This document shows positions 57,520-64,000 of a stretch of DNA of 64,000 nt, piece by piece (position 1 is the stretch's first letter; every line of letters starts with the position of its first letter). The notes below the pieces were generated by a model. That model did no database searches and had not been told where the DNA came from. It saw nothing but the letters and a program-made list of their open reading frames with translations. A program made the translations under genes and the position numbers. Source of the stretch: Nanobdellota archaeon (GTDB lineage: Archaea; Aenigmatarchaeota; Aenigmatarchaeia; QMZP01); the NCBI GenBank assembly GCA_043814765.1, contig JBDRJQ010000020.1, positions 3,028-67,027 on the forward strand, in the 5' to 3' direction.

Positions 57520-58347
57520 ATGCTCTTCTGGAGAAGGTTCAAATCTAACGTTTCGTGCAGGTGGACAGAGGCATGGACATTCAAGGTTGATGTATTCCTG
57601 AATATAGTAAACACAGTTCTAGCTGTGTTCATGTGGTATTTCATGTCCATAATGATACATCCAGCTATACTAGGATATGTAAATGTCGGTTACCTGCCAT
57701 TCATTATGGTTGGTAGTGTTGCGCTCTTCTTTGCCAGCAGAGTAACAGCAAGCTTCTCAGGAAGTTTTTACAGAGATATAGAAAGCGGTATATTTAAATT
57801 GGTGTACTTATCCGATATGAATTTAATACATTATTTTTTCATGAACTTCTTTACAGGACTGATATTTGATTCTTTCTTGATATTGGTTCCAATGATATCA
57901 GCATACTTCTTTTTGATACAGATAGTGGCATACGAGACAACGACATTTTTCAGTATGGGTATTCTATTGACAATATTAGCGTCATTCGCAATATTTGTGG
58001 TTGGTCAGCTAGGATTCACCATGATGACTGTGGGATCCAAACTGTACCTTAAGAAAGGAGATCCTATAAGCTTTACCATAGAAAAGCTAAATCAATTCTT
58101 CTCCGGACAGGTATTTCCACTAAGGTTGCTTCCTGCATTTTTGGCATTCCTGCCTACGGTGTTGCCTGCTGCTTACGTGATTCTGATTTGGAGGGATTCT
58201 CTCTTCTTGGGCAAAACAATCTTTGACGGAACAATGACTAACATCATGATTGGAGGAATTGTAGTAAGCGCTGTTATATTTGCTGTAGGGTTGCTCTTCT
58301 TTTACAAAGGCATAGAGAGGGCCAAGGTGGAGGGAAGATGGCTGTAA
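57520..58347 (+). CDS. ABC-2 type transporter permease
   Basis: About six hydrophobic spans. A 10-nt overlap with the downstream ATPase gene. Confidence 0.55.
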   Translation: MLFWRRFKSNVSCRWTEAWTFKVDVFLNIVNTVLAVFMWYFMSIMIHPAILGYVNVGYLPFIMVGSVALFFASRVTASFSGSFYRDIESGIFKLVYLSDMNLIHYFFMNFFTGLIFDSFLILVPMISAYFFLIQIVAYETTTFFSMGILLTILASFAIFVVGQLGFTMMTVGSKLYLKKGDPISFTIEKLNQFFSGQVFPLRLLPAFLAFLPTVLPAAYVILIWRDSLFLGKTIFDGTMTNIMIGGIVVSAVIFAVGLLFFYKGIERAKVEGRWL

Positions 58348-59348
58348 AAAATGATATAGAAGTCAGAAACCTGAGAAAGAATTACTATGAGTACAAGGTT
58401 TTCAAAAAAGGAAAACTTCTGACAAGGGCACTGAAAGGAGTTTCGTTTAATGTAAAACGTGGTGACTTTATCGGACTTCTGGGGCTCAACGGCGCAGGCA
58501 AAACAACACTGATGAAGATACTTACAACCAATATGAGGGAGACCTCAGGCAAAGTGCTAGTTAACGGATTTGATGTGAACAGTGATCAGAGGAAGGTAAG
58601 GAAGAGCATATCTTGGATGTATGGTGTGGATTATTATGGTGTTGGGTGGGCATCTGTTCAGAAGAACCTAGAACTCGCTGCCAACATACTAGGATTAGAA
58701 AAGAAAAAATCAAAGCAAATCATAGACAGGACAATAAAAGAATTTGGCTTGCAGAAGTTTAGAAAGCTGGATGTATGGAGGCTCAGTACTGGTTTAAGAG
58801 CAAGATATTCGCTTGCTGTTGCCATGATGAAAAACCCAAAAATTCTTTTCCTTGATGAACCGCTGATAGGTCTTGACGTGGAGAGCAAGGATGCTGTAAG
58901 AAAAAAACTGAATGAACTGAACCAAAATGGATTGACAATATTGTACACATCACACCAGCTAAATGAAGTAGAAAAAGTCTGTAAAAAAATCATACTGATA
59001 AATGACGGAAAAATAGTTCATCAGGGATATACAGACGACCTGAAGAACAGGTACAGGAAAATAAATCTGTTAGAGATTCGCTGCAAGACAGAGGATCTGG
59101 TTGGCATCAGGAAATCCCTTCTCAGAGAAAAAAACATAATAAACGACATAGAGGTTCTAGGAAGCAGGGGAAACGAACATCAGCTCAAGATCTATACAAA
59201 TGTTGATTCAAGCGAAGCTCTGCTACCCATAGGCAAGCTCTTCAAAAACAAAAACGTTATCCTGCAGAGCCTTAATGTTGGAACAGTTGATCTTGAGACT
59301 GTCTTCAAGAAGGTTATAAAGAAGAAGTTATTTAAATCCTTTTATTAA
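58338..59348 (+). CDS. ABC transporter ATP-binding protein
   Basis: Walker A is GLNGAGKTT, the signature-like motif is LSTGLRARY and Walker B is LFLDEPL. Confidence 0.8.
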   Translation: MAVKNDIEVRNLRKNYYEYKVFKKGKLLTRALKGVSFNVKRGDFIGLLGLNGAGKTTLMKILTTNMRETSGKVLVNGFDVNSDQRKVRKSISWMYGVDYYGVGWASVQKNLELAANILGLEKKKSKQIIDRTIKEFGLQKFRKLDVWRLSTGLRARYSLAVAMMKNPKILFLDEPLIGLDVESKDAVRKKLNELNQNGLTILYTSHQLNEVEKVCKKIILINDGKIVHQGYTDDLKNRYRKINLLEIRCKTEDLVGIRKSLLREKNIINDIEVLGSRGNEHQLKIYTNVDSSEALLPIGKLFKNKNVILQSLNVGTVDLETVFKKVIKKKLFKSFY

Positions 59349-59378
59349 ACATTTAATATCAAAGTTTGAGGTGAATAA

Positions 59379-59507
59379 ATGCCTAAAGAGAAAGTTGTTA
59401 AAAAAAAGGTTTATGCAGAAAATGTTGAAGTCAAAAAACTAAAAGACGGCAATTTCCGGCTAATCGTTAAGGGTTTAAGAAAAAAAAATGACGGAGGTAA
59501 CAAATAA
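59379..59507 (+). CDS. small peptide P1 (42 aa) with shared leader-like motif
   Basis: Hand-translated as MPKEKVVKKKVYAENVEVKKLKDGNFRLIVKGLRKKNDGGNK. GAGGTGA lies 4 nt upstream of the ATG. It is not in the ORF track because it is under 60 aa. Confidence 0.45.
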   Translation: MPKEKVVKKKVYAENVEVKKLKDGNFRLIVKGLRKKNDGGNK

Positions 59508-59508
59508 T

Positions 59509-59730
59509 ATGAAAGATATACATTTTAAGATAAAAGCCTCTAACGTAAATGTTAAGAAACTAGAAAACGGTACCTTTAAAATAGTCTGTGACAACATAAA
59601 GGAGCTTGAAAAAACATCTGAAAAGAGTAAATGGAAAAGCTCATATGGTAAAAAGGAAATAACAATATATCGTGGAAATCATGTTTTCAAAAAAGACATG
59701 AAGACAAAAAATATAAAGAAAATAAGGTGA
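59509..59730 (+). CDS. small peptide P2 (73 aa) with shared leader-like motif
   Basis: MKDIHFKIKASNVNVKKLENGTFKIVCDN... GGAGGT lies 10 nt upstream of this ATG. The track start at 59488 is the alternative. Confidence 0.45.
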   Translation: MKDIHFKIKASNVNVKKLENGTFKIVCDNIKELEKTSEKSKWKSSYGKKEITIYRGNHVFKKDMKTKNIKKIR

Positions 59731-59734
59731 TAAA

Positions 59735-59899
59735 ATAGTAAATGAAGTTATTGATGTTAAAGCATCAAAGGTTGAAGTAAGGAAATTGAGAGATGGTGTA
59801 TTTGAAGTTATAATATACGGAGCAAAGGGTGATCTAGAATGCTGTATGGATTATGCTCCATGTGATGCTACAATACAAGTCAGTATACCTGCAAGATAA
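59735..59899 (+). CDS. candidate RiPP precursor P3: leader-like motif + Cys-rich core, apparent ATA start
   Basis: The frame reads (I)VNEVIDVKASKVEVRKLRDGVFEVIIYGAKGDLECCMDYAPCDATIQVSIPAR*. AGGTGA plus 4 nt precedes the ATA, mirroring the SD-ATG geometry of P1. No ATG, GTG or TTG lies upstream of the conserved motif. Confidence 0.45.
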   Translation: MVNEVIDVKASKVEVRKLRDGVFEVIIYGAKGDLECCMDYAPCDATIQVSIPAR

Positions 59900-59966
59900 T
59901 TGTATAATAATCAAGGGTGAGCCAGAATGCTGTATGGATTATGCTCCATGTGATGCTACAATACAA
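59837..59966 (+). repeat. tandem direct repeat of the core-encoding segment (two identical 42-nt copies, 59837..59878 and 59925..59966)
   Basis: GAATGCTGTATGGATTATGCTCCATGTGATGCTACAATACAA occurs twice. Similarity extends upstream (ATAATA...AAGGGTGA) with a 6-nt in-frame indel. Confidence 0.9.
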
Positions 59967-59984
59967 TTTGATTCAATGAGATAA
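59853..59984 (+). CDS. possible second core peptide P4 (…IIIKGEPECCMDYAPCDATIQFDSMR), no leader homology
   Basis: The only in-frame ATG (59853) lies inside the P3 core. This may be a non-functional partial duplicate. Confidence 0.25.
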   Translation: MLHVMLQYKSVYLQDNCIIIKGEPECCMDYAPCDATIQFDSMR

Positions 59985-60033
59985 ACAATCAGCTAAGATA
60001 GTGGAAATCCTCAATTAAACTTTATTATTTAAT

Positions 60034-61428
60034 GTGGTATTTATGATTAATCTATGTGAAACGATTATTGAATTCTCTGAAAAAGTATCGCCTAAATCTA
60101 AATATACATTTTCTAAATATCTAAATGTTATACCTTACAAATCTAATGTAATCTTGCTATCCGGAAGAACTGGTCGCATAATAGTTTGCACAAACAATGA
60201 ATGGAAACTTGTTAAAAAATATCTTAGATCGCCAAACAACAATGAAGATTTTTTTTATCCTTTCATTGAGACTGGAATGATTGTTAATAAAGAATTTGAT
60301 GAATTTGCTTATTTACTAAACAAAACAAACGAAAATAGGAAAGAATTAATAGAAAGAACCTATGATGGATCAAGAAGTGGTGGGATTTGGCTGACTCTTG
60401 GTAATTCATGTAATCTAAAATGTATTTATTGCTATCTGGAGAAAAACACCAGTTTAATGAGTTTTGAAACAATTAATGACGCCTTAGAGCAATTTCATGA
60501 TGGTTTTGTTAAAGGTAAACTTAAAAACGCACAGATTGCAATTGCTGGAGGAGAACCACTTTTATACAAGGATAGAGTAAAGCATATTTTTATCAAAAGT
60601 AAAATGCTGTTCAAAGAGGATTTTAATAAAGTTATTTTTTTCATAATAACCAATGGTACACTTATAGATGATGATTTGTTGAAATTCATAAAAACGAATA
60701 AGATAAATGTCCTGTTTCAAATAAGTATAGACGGTAATGAGGATATTCATAACAAAAGACGCATGTATGCAGATGGCAAAGGCACATATAATACAATTAT
60801 AAAAAATCTAAAAAGGGTAGCTGAATATGGAAACTTGATAATAATTAGAATACATGCCGACGAATCTAATTACTCGAAGATGGATAAGTTTTTTCATGAT
60901 ATTAAACCAATCCTCAATTCAAAAGTAACTGTTGACTTTATCGCACCAGTATGTGTTGATAAAGACGTTAAGTATGACAGTAAGCAATCATTTATAAAAT
61001 TTGATAAAATGGTAGAATCATTTAATAGTTTTGTTGATAGGAATAAATTAAAACTTTATAATGAAACAGAAACCGATTACAATCCGTTAAGTTCTACAAG
61101 TTATTTAGGACGTAATATATCCTTTTGTTCTGGTTTTGTCGGACAAAAATTTTGGCTAGATCCAAAAGGAAACTGGCTTGCATGTCCCATGGAAGAGTGG
61201 GTTATAGGCGATATAAAAAATGGCATTTCATATTCAAAAGTAAAAGAATTAAACAACATGGTAAAGGAAAACAACAAATGTTTGAGGTGTCCTAGATATT
61301 TTTTTTGCTCTAAACGTGTATGTCATAGAGTTATTTTAACTGGCATGGAAAAGCACACACCATTTATTAATAATAAAGATTTCAAATATATGGCAATAAA
61401 ATATGCAAAAAGTGCTGGTTTGGTATGA
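60034..61428 (+). CDS. radical SAM/SPASM peptide-modifying enzyme with PqqD/RRE-like N-terminal domain
   Basis: Contains GNSCNLKCIYCY (CX3CX2C), IAGGEPL, C-terminal FCSGF...ACPME...CLRCPRYFFCSKRVCH (SPASM-like CX2CX5CX4C) and N-terminal SNVILLSGRTGRIIVCTNNEWKLVKKYL. Confidence 0.75.
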   Translation: MVFMINLCETIIEFSEKVSPKSKYTFSKYLNVIPYKSNVILLSGRTGRIIVCTNNEWKLVKKYLRSPNNNEDFFYPFIETGMIVNKEFDEFAYLLNKTNENRKELIERTYDGSRSGGIWLTLGNSCNLKCIYCYLEKNTSLMSFETINDALEQFHDGFVKGKLKNAQIAIAGGEPLLYKDRVKHIFIKSKMLFKEDFNKVIFFIITNGTLIDDDLLKFIKTNKINVLFQISIDGNEDIHNKRRMYADGKGTYNTIIKNLKRVAEYGNLIIIRIHADESNYSKMDKFFHDIKPILNSKVTVDFIAPVCVDKDVKYDSKQSFIKFDKMVESFNSFVDRNKLKLYNETETDYNPLSSTSYLGRNISFCSGFVGQKFWLDPKGNWLACPMEEWVIGDIKNGISYSKVKELNNMVKENNKCLRCPRYFFCSKRVCHRVILTGMEKHTPFINNKDFKYMAIKYAKSAGLV

Positions 61429-63233
61429 AAAAAACAAAAAAAATATGTCTAGTTTCAATGCCCTTTAATAATGTTTTTTATCCCAATATACAATTAGCTA
61501 GCCTTAAGAGTTACATTAATCAGAACAGCCCAATAAACGTAGATCTTAAACACTTCAATCTTGATTTCTTCAATTTTATTTTAAGCTCCAAAGAAAAGAA
61601 AGAAACCATTCCATATTATAGTTTTTTTAATTCATATAGTAGAGATCTATACAATGGAGACATAGTCTTTGCATGTATGTATTATCCCAAGAAAATGAGT
61701 TCTATATTAGATGTAATATTCAACAAAAAAAACAAGACCACAAAACATAAGCACTGGAGAAAAGAACTTACAAGAAAAGAAACAATAAAAATTATCAACG
61801 ATTTTAAAAAATTCACTGAAGATTTAATAAAATCTGTAAACTGGAAGGATTATTTTTTAGTGGGATTCAGTTGCTCATTTGCTCAGCTATTTCCATCTAT
61901 TTACGCTGCAAAATTAATAAAAAAGGCAAATCCAGATATAAAAATAGTTTTTGGAGGCAATGTTGTTTTTGAAGAACAAGGAAAATACATCTTAAATGAA
62001 TTCAACGAAGTAGATTTTATAATTTCTGGTGAGGGTGAAAAACCCCTTTTAAAAATGATTAGTGATTTAACAAATAAAATAATCCCTGAAAGGTATATTG
62101 ATGGCAGCAAACAACTAGTTAAATTGGATAATTTACCACTACCAGACTATAATAAATTCTTTGAACAACATTCTCAACTAAAGATACCTTATTTGGTTTT
62201 AATGTTATATGCATCAAAAGGTTGTTTTTATAATAAATGTAGTTTTTGTAGCATGAATAAACAATACTCATCATACAGGATAAAGAATGTAAACAAAATG
62301 ATAGATGAAATTATTGAGTTAAAAAGAAAATATCCGAAAACTGTGAATTTTGCATTCACTGATAGCATGATACCAGAACCATACTTAATCAAATTTGCCA
62401 AAGAAATAATAAAAAGAAAAATAAAAATATCATTTTGGTTAGAACTAAAAGCAAATGCAAAAAAAGAGACAATAAAATTATTATCAAAGGCAGGCCTAAA
62501 AGGAGCGCAGATAGGAATAGAGTCATTTAATCAAAACATATTAGAGAGAATGAACAAAGGAACAACAGTAAAGCAAAACATTGAAACAATGAAAATTTTT
62601 GAAGAGCTTAACGTAAAGGTTAGTTCCAATATAATAACACGATTTTTGAACGTTGATAAAAAAGACATAATTAATACTTTTGAGGTACTAAAAAAATTAA
62701 AATACTATCATCCGCTAAGTGCCAGCATTTTAGATTATACTTACGGTTCAAAAGAACACGAAAAACTGGTAAAATCAGGTTCTTATATACTTGCAGATGA
62801 AGAATTGAACTACATAATATATGCAAATCTAGAAAAATACAATACCTTTCTTCCAATCATTCCTAAAAAACAAGATAATCTGAAAGAATGGAAAGCCGTA
62901 GAGAATTTTATCAACGAAGAAAGAAAAAAGAAAAGATTCATAAACAGCCTTCCAGGCATCTACTATAAAAAACACAAAAACAAGATAACAGTTTACGTCA
63001 ACTATAACAAAAAGCTTGTAGGAACAGATATCACTAAAAAAATAGACTTATTGATATTTAACTTTTGCGATTCATTCAAAAACATACAAGAAATACGTAA
63101 TTGTCTTTCTGGATATTCTAAAAAGGAGATAAGTGAGTCAATAGAGCGTTTATTGAAAAAAGAAATACTTATAGATATAGATGAAGATTATATGACACTG
63201 CCAGTGAAGTTTGACAAGTCTAAATGGAAATAA
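61425..63233 (+). CDS. radical SAM enzyme with cobalamin-binding-like N-domain (class B / RiPP-maturation C-methyltransferase-like)
   Basis: The N-terminus is ICLVSMPFNNVFYPNIQLASLKSYI, followed by IVFGGNVV and the cluster motif SKGCFYNKCSFCSMN. The start overlaps the upstream stop in an ATGA junction (4-nt overlap). Confidence 0.65.
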   Translation: MKKTKKICLVSMPFNNVFYPNIQLASLKSYINQNSPINVDLKHFNLDFFNFILSSKEKKETIPYYSFFNSYSRDLYNGDIVFACMYYPKKMSSILDVIFNKKNKTTKHKHWRKELTRKETIKIINDFKKFTEDLIKSVNWKDYFLVGFSCSFAQLFPSIYAAKLIKKANPDIKIVFGGNVVFEEQGKYILNEFNEVDFIISGEGEKPLLKMISDLTNKIIPERYIDGSKQLVKLDNLPLPDYNKFFEQHSQLKIPYLVLMLYASKGCFYNKCSFCSMNKQYSSYRIKNVNKMIDEIIELKRKYPKTVNFAFTDSMIPEPYLIKFAKEIIKRKIKISFWLELKANAKKETIKLLSKAGLKGAQIGIESFNQNILERMNKGTTVKQNIETMKIFEELNVKVSSNIITRFLNVDKKDIINTFEVLKKLKYYHPLSASILDYTYGSKEHEKLVKSGSYILADEELNYIIYANLEKYNTFLPIIPKKQDNLKEWKAVENFINEERKKKRFINSLPGIYYKKHKNKITVYVNYNKKLVGTDITKKIDLLIFNFCDSFKNIQEIRNCLSGYSKKEISESIERLLKKEILIDIDEDYMTLPVKFDKSKWK

Positions 63234-63236
63234 ATT

Positions 63237-64000
63237 ATGAAAATGTTAAAAATATGTCTGGTTTCCATGCCATTTCATACTGTTATCTATCCCGATGTTC
63301 AATTGTCAAATCTGAAGAGCTACATAAATTCTAAGAATAAAATTAATGCAGATTTAAAATATTTTAATTTGAATCTATTCTACTTTCTATCTAAAATTGG
63401 TTCAGAAAAAATGTACCTTAGGTGTCTTCATAATTATTATTCTCCAGATATGTGCTACGGTGATTTGTTTTATTCTTGTTTATATTACCCAGAAAAAAAG
63501 GATAATATAATAAACATAATTATGGATTCAAACGACAAATATTTCCACTCCCATAACTATCTAAGAAAACCATTTTCAAAAAAAGAAACGGTAAATTTTA
63601 TTAATGAATTAAAAAATGAGACTGACAAAATCATAAAGTCTGTGAATTGGAAAGATTATCTTATAGTTATACTTGGCTGTTCTTATGGACAGCTTTTCCC
63701 ATCACTTTATGCGGCAAAACTGATAAAGAAACTCAATCCATCAATTAAGATTTGTGTGTATGGTAATCTCATTTTCAAAGAATATGGAAACTACATATTA
63801 AACGAGTTTAGAGACATAGATTTTATTTTTTCAGGAGAAGACGAAAAAACGTTTTATAAATTAATTTATGATATAATTAACAACAGAAAACCTAATAAAA
63901 ACATAAACAATTTTAAGAATCATATTAAACTTGATCAACTACCTTTTACAGATTATAAGGACTTTTTTGAGAAATCTAATTTAATGGGTATTGAGCAGAA
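63237..64000 (+). CDS. second, paralogous radical SAM enzyme of the same type (N-terminal 254 aa only; continues beyond window)
   Basis: Hand-translated as MKMLKICLVSMPFHTVIYPDVQLSNLKSYI...SVNWKDYLIV...LYAAKLIKKLNPSIKICVYGN..., collinear with 61425..63233. It is absent from the ORF track because it is open-ended. Confidence 0.6.
   Translation, partial: MKMLKICLVSMPFHTVIYPDVQLSNLKSYINSKNKINADLKYFNLNLFYFLSKIGSEKMYLRCLHNYYSPDMCYGDLFYSCLYYPEKKDNIINIIMDSNDKYFHSHNYLRKPFSKKETVNFINELKNETDKIIKSVNWKDYLIVILGCSYGQLFPSLYAAKLIKKLNPSIKICVYGNLIFKEYGNYILNEFRDIDFIFSGEDEKTFYKLIYDIINNRKPNKNINNFKNHIKLDQLPFTDYKDFFEKSNLMGIEQ

Follow-up and report, generated by a model that had tools for sequence, protein, structure and literature searches.

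Introduction

When the core of a peptide precursor is copied without its leader, is the copy a second product or a silent fragment? The question is raised by a 64,000-nucleotide stretch of DNA, hereafter the window, from a Nanobdellota archaeon, which covers positions 3028-67027 of the 69.5-kb contig JBDRJQ010000020.1 (C20) in assembly GCA_043814765.1. The window holds an orphan gene cluster for peptides that are synthesized ribosomally and modified after translation (RiPPs), in a small archaeal genome. Three short precursor genes, P1 to P3, stand in front of genes for radical S-adenosylmethionine (SAM) enzymes, and the cysteine core encoded by P3 is present a second time just behind the P3 stop codon. 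The upstream unit of the repeat is called copy 1 here and the downstream unit copy 2. Coordinates are those of the window unless they are referred to the contig, and every feature described lies on the + strand.

An earlier note on this DNA had taken the repeat for a tandem duplication with an in-frame indel, and had offered two explanations, namely a very recent partial duplication that yields a leaderless core, or a core expressed by an unusual route. Here we report an analysis of the repeat, of the signals from which copy 2 might be translated and of the surrounding cluster. Copy 2 is probably a recent core fragment that is untranslated or barely translated, and not a second product.

Structure of the repeat

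Copy 1 (59825..59878, KGDLECCMDYAPCDATIQ) and copy 2 (59913..59966, KGEPECCMDYAPCDATIQ) form a direct repeat of 54 nucleotides (nt), identified by repeat search, which match without gaps at 52 positions. The 42 nt that encode the core ECCMDYAPCDATIQ are identical at 59837-59878 and 59925-59966, just as the earlier note had it, and the longest exact run between the copies is 43 nt. When the region 59300-60100 was shuffled 500 times under a first-order Markov model, the longest exact direct repeat had a mean length of 10.9 nt and a maximum of 17 nt; the duplication is confirmed and lies far beyond chance. The two mismatches are confined to the first 12 nt, and each alters the encoded residue: GAT becomes GAG (D to E), and CTA becomes CCA (L to P). 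The shared unit is exactly 18 codons long, KG[D/E][L/P]ECCMDYAPCDATIQ, and comprises the last four residues before the core and the 14-residue cysteine core itself. A search of the 859-kb genome found the full cysteine-core sequence twice, both times at this locus and nowhere else.

Beyond these 54 nt the surroundings of the two copies are unrelated. Copy 1 is followed by a spacer of 34 nt (59879..59912), made up of the P3 tail, its TAA stop (59897-59899) and 13 nt more, which has no counterpart after copy 2; the 34 nt that follow each copy are no more similar than shuffled sequences (p 0.75). The tails, VSIPAR and FDSMR, each ending in a stop, are likewise no more alike than shuffles (p 0.88), and had been correctly described as different. 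Upstream of AAGGGTGA the similarity of the copies is again at the level of shuffles (local alignment, p about 0.32). A gapped alignment can be extended upstream to a common TATAATA, with a net length difference of 6 nt. The upstream sequences quoted earlier were accurate, but the likeness drawn from them (ATAATA) does not exceed chance, and the 6-nt in-frame indel proposed on that basis is a possible reading that the statistics do not support.

Tandem Repeats Finder reported no tandem repeat at the locus. We rejected an 88-nt tandem duplication by slippage or unequal crossing-over, as only 54 of the 88 nt are common, the flanks are unrelated and no register fits. Since flanks, spacer and tails are unlike, the arrangement points to copy-and-paste of one segment and not to the true tandem duplication that had been claimed. 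About ten other local exact repeats of at least 40 nt occur in the genome, most of them with offsets that are multiples of 3, so local segment copying appears normal here. The out-of-frame offset is what sets this case apart: the copies are spaced 88 nt start to start (88 = 3 x 29 + 1), which places copy 2 in the +1 frame relative to P3.

Two other kinds of element were considered and set aside. A diversity-generating retroelement was rejected as no match to the reverse transcriptase family PF00078 was found in the genome, with positive controls, and as the repeat is short and has just two mismatches. The segment 59800-60045 was also rejected as an RNA element; it folds less stably than shuffled sequences (z +1.8) and has no Rfam match.

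Precursor genes

P1 (59379..59507) encodes 42 residues with the leader motif AENVEVKKLKDGNFRLIVKG, lacks a cysteine core and has the start region GAGGTGA-ATAA-ATG. P2 (59509..59730) encodes 73 residues with the leader motif ASNVNVKKLENGTFKIV and a Lys-rich C-terminal part. P3 (59735..59899) combines the leader motif with the cysteine core ECCMDYAPCDATIQ and the tail VSIPAR, and its start region reads AGGTGA-TAAA-ATA. The motif common to the three, (A)xxVxV[K/R]KLxxGxF, was used as a regular expression against all six frames of the whole genome and matched P1, P2 and P3 only. In the public annotation P1 and a 73-residue form of P2 are singleton proteins, and neither P3 nor the copy-2 frame, in any form tested, is annotated in the public protein collection.

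The frame of P3 is closed by a TAA at 59723-59725. Ahead of the leader motif it contains no ATG, GTG or TTG, and the sole start-like codon there is an ATA that follows AGGTGA at exactly 4 nt, the Shine-Dalgarno spacing which this genome prefers. Nowhere else in the genome does a GGTGA-N4-ATA have a frame that is closed upstream. Either P3 starts at ATA, or it was recently silenced by a change from ATG to ATA.

The junctions P1/P2 (59505-59511, TAA-T-ATG), P2/P3 (59728-59737, TGA-TAAA-ATA) and P3/copy 2 (59897-59906, TAA-TTGT-ATA) have one property in common, in that the downstream frame is always +1. Chance would give this about once in 27, and it may reflect a coupling geometry or a coincidence.

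Translation signals around copy 2

The frame that contains copy 2 and the tail FDSMR (labelled P4) is open from 59853 to 59984 (..KGEPECCMDYAPCDATIQFDSMR). The leader motif is absent from it, as the earlier note had recognized. The starts ATG 59853, GTG 59862 and ATG 59865 lie inside core 1 and have no Shine-Dalgarno sequence. The earlier statement that the only ATG of the second copy lies inside the first core was therefore right about the location of these codons and inexact about their number, as the core's own ATG at 59934 is in frame too. The latter is the first canonical in-frame start after the P3 stop, at a distance of 34 nt. An in-frame ATA at 59904 stands 4 nt after that stop (TAA-TTGT-ATA) and is not preceded by GGTGA.

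These positions were compared with the start signals of the genome as a whole. GGTGA is enriched about 4-fold over background before starts, with a sharp peak at a spacing of 4 nt (19 of 33 cases), and TTTAWA peaks 27-31 nt before ATGs. The latter peak implies mostly leaderless mRNAs, beside a minority of genes with a Shine-Dalgarno sequence of the GGTGA type at a strict 4-nt spacing. The copy-2 frame has neither the GGTGA signal at 4 nt nor a TTTAWA box at 27-31 nt, and the GGGTGA inside the repeat serves an alternative frame only. A TATA-like TGTATAAT at 59900, 27 nt before the ATG of the alternative frame and 34 nt before the in-frame ATG, was discounted as expected in DNA of 30% GC.

Translational coupling to P3 was considered from both kinds of start. 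In Haloferax volcanii, termination-reinitiation falls by 60% at 13 nt and is abolished at 22 nt (PMC10666635), and the ATGs of the copy-2 frame are ruled out for coupling on that ground. Initiation at ATA is without independent support, because P3 is the genome's sole GGTGA-N4-ATA with a closed upstream frame; genome-wide nothing beyond P3 itself speaks for ATA starts. For another near-cognate codon, ATT, a level of about 0.3% of ATG is given for E. coli (Hecht 2017, as cited in PMC10666635). A programmed +1 frameshift at AGA-TAA-T was rejected on inspection, re-pairing of the P-site tRNA being impossible and no plausible slippery site being present. The unusual route of expression that had been suggested for the second core thus finds no positive support.

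A near-perfect match to a bacterial sigma-70-like promoter, TTGAGA-17-TATAAT with 11 of 12 positions matched, occurs at 59786-59814, inside P3 and just upstream of copy 1. We disregarded it as probably meaningless in an archaeon, the proteins of the window being read as archaeal; it would matter if the cluster were expressed in E. coli.

Origin and fate of the copied core

The simplest course of events that fits these observations would be that a 54-nt segment of P3 gave rise to a copy which was pasted in 34 nt further downstream, between ...GATAATTGTATAATAATC and TTTGATTC..., at a point 13 nt beyond the P3 stop. In that case the tail FDSMR would have been non-coding before, and would reach a stop after five codons by chance. 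The duplication is likely to be young relative to the gene family, because the two cores are 96% identical (52 of 54 nt) and the leaders of P1 and P3 about 71% over 41 nt. A recent partial duplication that leaves a leaderless core, one of the two explanations first put forward, fits these figures.

Copy 2 is probably silent, because it has no docking motif, stands in the +1 frame, lacks GGTGA at 4 nt and has no canonical in-frame start nearby. The biochemistry of related enzymes points in the same direction. Recognition by PapB is reported to be governed mainly by the leader's binding to a RiPP recognition element (RRE), the acceptor residue lying C-terminal to the cysteine (PMC12373016). By analogy, copy 2 would fail the leader rule of PapB-type recognition, and its core would fit the acceptor rule. 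In the working cluster, the common N-terminal motif would let P1 to P3 dock on a CteB/PapB-like radical SAM/SPASM enzyme at its N-terminal domain, and this enzyme would cross-link the core cysteines to downstream acceptors of the Asp/Thr type; C-methylation would fall to three B12-radical SAM enzymes, and a pair of ATP-binding cassette (ABC) proteins would export the product.

A silent fragment might nevertheless have a future. The 43-nt exact repeat could serve as a recombination substrate, and a deletion of 88 nt would leave one in-frame gene, ...GAKGDLECCMDYAPCDATIQFDSMR*, with the tail FDSMR. Since recombination would leave an in-frame gene with the other tail, the fragment could act as a substrate for tail swapping.

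Several points weigh against a silent copy 2. Both sequence differences fall outside the 42-nt core (p = 0.046), and a decaying fragment should change evenly, which mildly favours constraint on both cores, two changes being weak ground. Upstream of copy 2 its frame stays free of stops for 30 codons; among stretches of that length taken from the +1 frame of real genes in the genome, about 6% are open as well. The ATA at 59904, at stop plus 4 nt, repeats the geometry of the P2/P3 junction, where ATA is the sole candidate start of P3, and P1 is a leader without a core. Taken singly these indications are weak, and they came to light only in hindsight; jointly they leave room for a functional copy 2 as a minor possibility. 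The silence of copy 2, for its part, is argued from missing signals.

Alternative explanations

The same points count in favour of copy 2 as a working second core, which would be translated non-canonically by reinitiation at ATA 59904 or from ATG 59853 or 59865, and matured either independently of a leader or with a leader supplied in trans, a role that P1 could fill. Leaderless RiPP precursors are in fact documented in fungi (PMC12912989). We hold such a core to be unlikely, though worth keeping in mind: ATA 59904 has no GGTGA, initiation at ATA has P3 as its sole genomic case and near-cognate starts are poor on the E. coli figure for ATT cited in PMC10666635. The internal ATGs, without a Shine-Dalgarno sequence, would have to be used under ribosomes that translate P3, and enzymes of the PapB type are described as driven by the leader and its RRE (PMC12373016). 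The specific version in which the precursor is naturally split, copy 2 being made at a low level by reinitiation at ATA and P1 activating the radical SAM/SPASM enzyme in trans, seems very improbable to us; if true, an archaeon would offer a native case of RiPP biosynthesis with the leader in trans, at a moment shortly after a core module had been copied. The product might also lie in the alternative frame, where an 8-codon open reading frame (MLYGLCSM, 59839..59865, with its twin at 59927-59953) is present in both copies, as had been noticed before, at 6 nt from GGGTGA and not at the 7 nt then given. This mini-frame has the best initiation signal around copy 2, with a Shine-Dalgarno-like GGTGA at a spacing found in 5 of the genome's 33 starts that have GGTGA in front. 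The genome, however, prefers 4 nt to 6, the GGTGA and ATG are by-products of the K-G-D/E and E-C codons, the duplication is automatic for a frame inside the repeat, and the version in copy 1 lies within a translated gene. We know of no 8-residue product class or partner, and that the mini-frame is the functional unit is barely credible.

Other explanations concern how the two cores came to stand side by side. P3 and copy 2 could be one precursor with two cores (leader, core, a linker of roughly 11 residues, core, FDSMR), split by a 1-nt indel within 59879-59896 that arose by mutation or as a consensus error. The copy-2 frame is open across the spacer into core 1, a change of one base would be enough to join the frames, and the best-matching enzyme families (PapB, the CefB family with a cysteine every fifth residue, and the CXXX-repeat maturases) act on precursors that contain repeats. 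Such a split is decidedly improbable, as the spacer is free of homopolymers in which an indel error might be expected, AGA-TAA-T is not a credible +1 slippery site, P3 as it stands ends normally with a short tail and a stop, and only the 54 nt and not the linker are repeated, so that no in-frame internal tandem duplication took place. Gene conversion would account for the abrupt end of identity on both sides of the 54 nt: copy 2 would be the remnant of an old leader-less fourth paralogue whose core a short conversion event had recently replaced with that of P3. P1 to P3 do show earlier duplication in the family, and AGA-TAA ends both tails. AGA and TAA are the expected commonest arginine and stop codons in AT-rich DNA, which takes the force from that shared ending; the flanks retain no homology that could have seeded a conversion (p 0.32-0.88), no remnant of a leader is present and only 13 nt separate the P3 stop from copy 2. 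We regard conversion as quite unlikely. The assembly itself might be at fault, a single precursor gene having been stitched head to tail from two of its alleles or from two strains, given that the assembly is in 39 contigs and 88% complete and that no independent assembly is on record. Tail 1 is, however, joined to copy 2 through 34 nt of unique sequence that has no k-mer in common with the rest, the repeat is internal to the 69.5-kb contig, and the copies are not the same, with two mismatched positions and unlike flanks. With a unique spacer and k-mers common only inside the repeat, the reads must contain the spacer, and on the sequence an artefact appears highly improbable. A recent, silent or nearly silent fragment of P3 remains the explanation that we prefer.

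Maturation enzymes and cluster organization

The enzyme context of the cluster is solid. Downstream of copy 2, 60043..61428 encodes a radical SAM/SPASM peptide maturase of the CteB/PapB type (PF04055 at 6.6e-18). Its radical SAM motif CX3CX2C, C123-N-L-K-C127-I-Y-C130, is invariant in the alignment, and the SPASM-domain cysteines C362, C381, C413, C416, C422, C425 and C440 are conserved or nearly so; the alignments to CteB and anSME reach residues 424-429. In the translation, the last SPASM cysteines are spaced CX4C, where CX3C is usual. The best family match, PapB (NF047865), scores 143.3 bits against a cut-off of 340 and is thus below equivalog level, and the enzyme is predicted from its sequence to work like the PapB family without being an equivalog-level member of it. 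CteB is the best match in the PDB by sequence (5wgg, 7.8e-20) and also by fold, at 4.4e-16 over the full length (Foldseek, 446 columns, for a model of only moderate confidence, with a mean predicted local distance difference test score, pLDDT, of 59.9). An RRE has three strands that lead into helices; in the model of the N-terminal domain, strands (28-50) are followed by helices (51-106), but this part is poorly predicted, with a pLDDT of 28-63 over residues 1-112. In products of the ranthipeptide type a thioether joins the cysteine sulfur to a non-alpha carbon of a residue further downstream. The core cysteines here stand before Asp or Thr (CCMD, CDAT), an arrangement consistent with the rule of a C-terminal acceptor quoted in PMC12373016.

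Three consecutive B12-radical SAM paralogues of 602, 606 and at least 495 residues follow, to the end of the contig (C20:64452-69552). The first (61425..63233; PF02310, PF04055) resembles RiPP C-methyltransferases and falls just short of TIGR03975, with 268 bits against a cut-off of 281.85 over profile positions 1-606. It carries GCFYNKCSFC, that is a CX4CX2C spacing. The second (63237..64000) runs past the end of the window to contig position 68084, and the third overlaps the second by 17 nt, is cut by the contig end and is 51% identical to the first.

Upstream of P1 lie two transporter genes. The first (57520..58347) encodes a polytopic membrane protein, probably an ABC-2-type permease, as a hydrophobic reading frame of 275 residues that overlaps the ATPase gene; this protein has no Pfam or NCBIfam match. 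The second (58338..59348) encodes a DrrA-like ABC transporter ATP-binding protein (PF00005 at 5.4e-27) which scores 210.7 bits against TIGR01188 drrA, under the cut-off of that family. All genes of the cluster, from 57520 to the end of the contig, are on the + strand.

The host genome is about 859 kb long. The proteins of the window include RFC-like, RtcB, EF-2-like, DHH-CID RecJ-like and FtsZ proteins, a set that we read as archaeal. The precursor and enzyme genes have a GC content of 27.5-30.7%, against a genome mean of 37.4% (2-kb windows: standard deviation 2.9, minimum 27.2), and the low-GC region from 59379 through 64000 to the contig end (C20:62406-69552) is among the lowest 2-kb windows of the genome. 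The two ABC genes, at 38.9% GC, are typical of the genome. The enzyme block looks foreign because its GC content is far below the genome mean, unlike that of the ABC genes; it appears to have been horizontally acquired, beside transporter genes that look native.

Search for relatives

The earlier note had proposed a comparison with homologous clusters. This comparison was run, and no homologous cluster was found in any collection searched. Sixty related genomes, drawn from the same genus, family and order, do not have the cluster; their radical SAM enzymes are only 26-35% identical, and the loci retrieved for these enzymes lack the leader and the full core motif. Relatives of P3 were found neither in a word-based search of 5.8 billion proteins nor in scans of genome and metagenome contigs with back-translated patterns. 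Among 5.8 billion clustered proteins the SPASM enzyme had no homologue but itself at E <= 1e-20, and no relatives of it turned up in genome contigs. The nearest relative of the B12 enzyme elsewhere has 43% identity and sits on a 2-kb contig; others stand in unrelated contexts.

An exhaustive phmmer search of P3 against 1.84 billion representatives gave two marginal matches, both to large repeat proteins. In the one match with aligned stretches, P3 residues 5-31 (59747-59827) align with repeated LRDGGFEVFIVG-type units at E 1.5e-4; the matching protein is 1127 residues long and also has a long non-repeat region. We judged neither match to be homologous. The similarity to the LRDGGFEVFIVG hairpin suggests that the leader motif may form a beta-hairpin.

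Significance

Partial gene copies beside their parent gene are ordinary, and the duplication alone is a small finding. It is a young event in precursor evolution, in which a core module was copied without its leader, and the fragment may be silent, a substrate for tail swapping or already in use. The repeat also draws attention to an unannotated pair of precursors, which belong to a RiPP cluster of low GC content and apparently foreign origin in a tiny archaeal genome; taken as a whole, this cluster holds more interest than the repeat. To regard the latter as a glimpse of the birth of a precursor array is a reasonable gloss.

Comparison with known systems

The closest likeness is to the ranthipeptide systems CteA/CteB (thermocellin) and PapA/PapB (freyrasin). 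The cluster has in common with them a radical SAM motif CX3CX2C, a SPASM domain with seven cysteines and an N-terminal domain of roughly 110 residues, and CteB is the top PDB match by both sequence and fold, PapB the top NCBIfam match. As in ranthipeptide systems, a small cysteine-containing precursor has acidic or Thr residues C-terminal to its cysteines and an ABC transporter adjoins. Unlike CteA/CteB and PapA/PapB, this cluster has three B12-radical SAM methyltransferases attached and belongs to an archaeal host. It departs from PapB further in the family score (143 against 340 bits) and in a precursor that has no relative anywhere in the collections searched, and the chemistry given for it here is a prediction.

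With arrays of the prochlorosin/Nif11 type the locus shares adjacent paralogues, P1 to P3, that have a conserved N-terminal motif and unrelated C-terminal parts. Copy 2 differs from the members of such arrays in being an identical core with no leader, produced by copying a 54-nt segment and not by duplication of a whole gene. Two near-identical cores within 90 nt, one base away from a single frame, recall the PatE-type cyanobactin precursors and the substrates of PapB, CefB and the CXXX-repeat maturases; unlike in multi-core precursors of the PatE type, a stop codon and a +1 offset separate the cores here and the linker is unrepeated. Finally, core-coding sequence without the family leader is also found in the leaderless MSDIN precursors of fungi (PMC12912989) and in leaderless bacteriocins. 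Those have starts of their own and are demonstrably expressed, whereas copy 2 stands behind P3 without a canonical start or a ribosome-binding signal.

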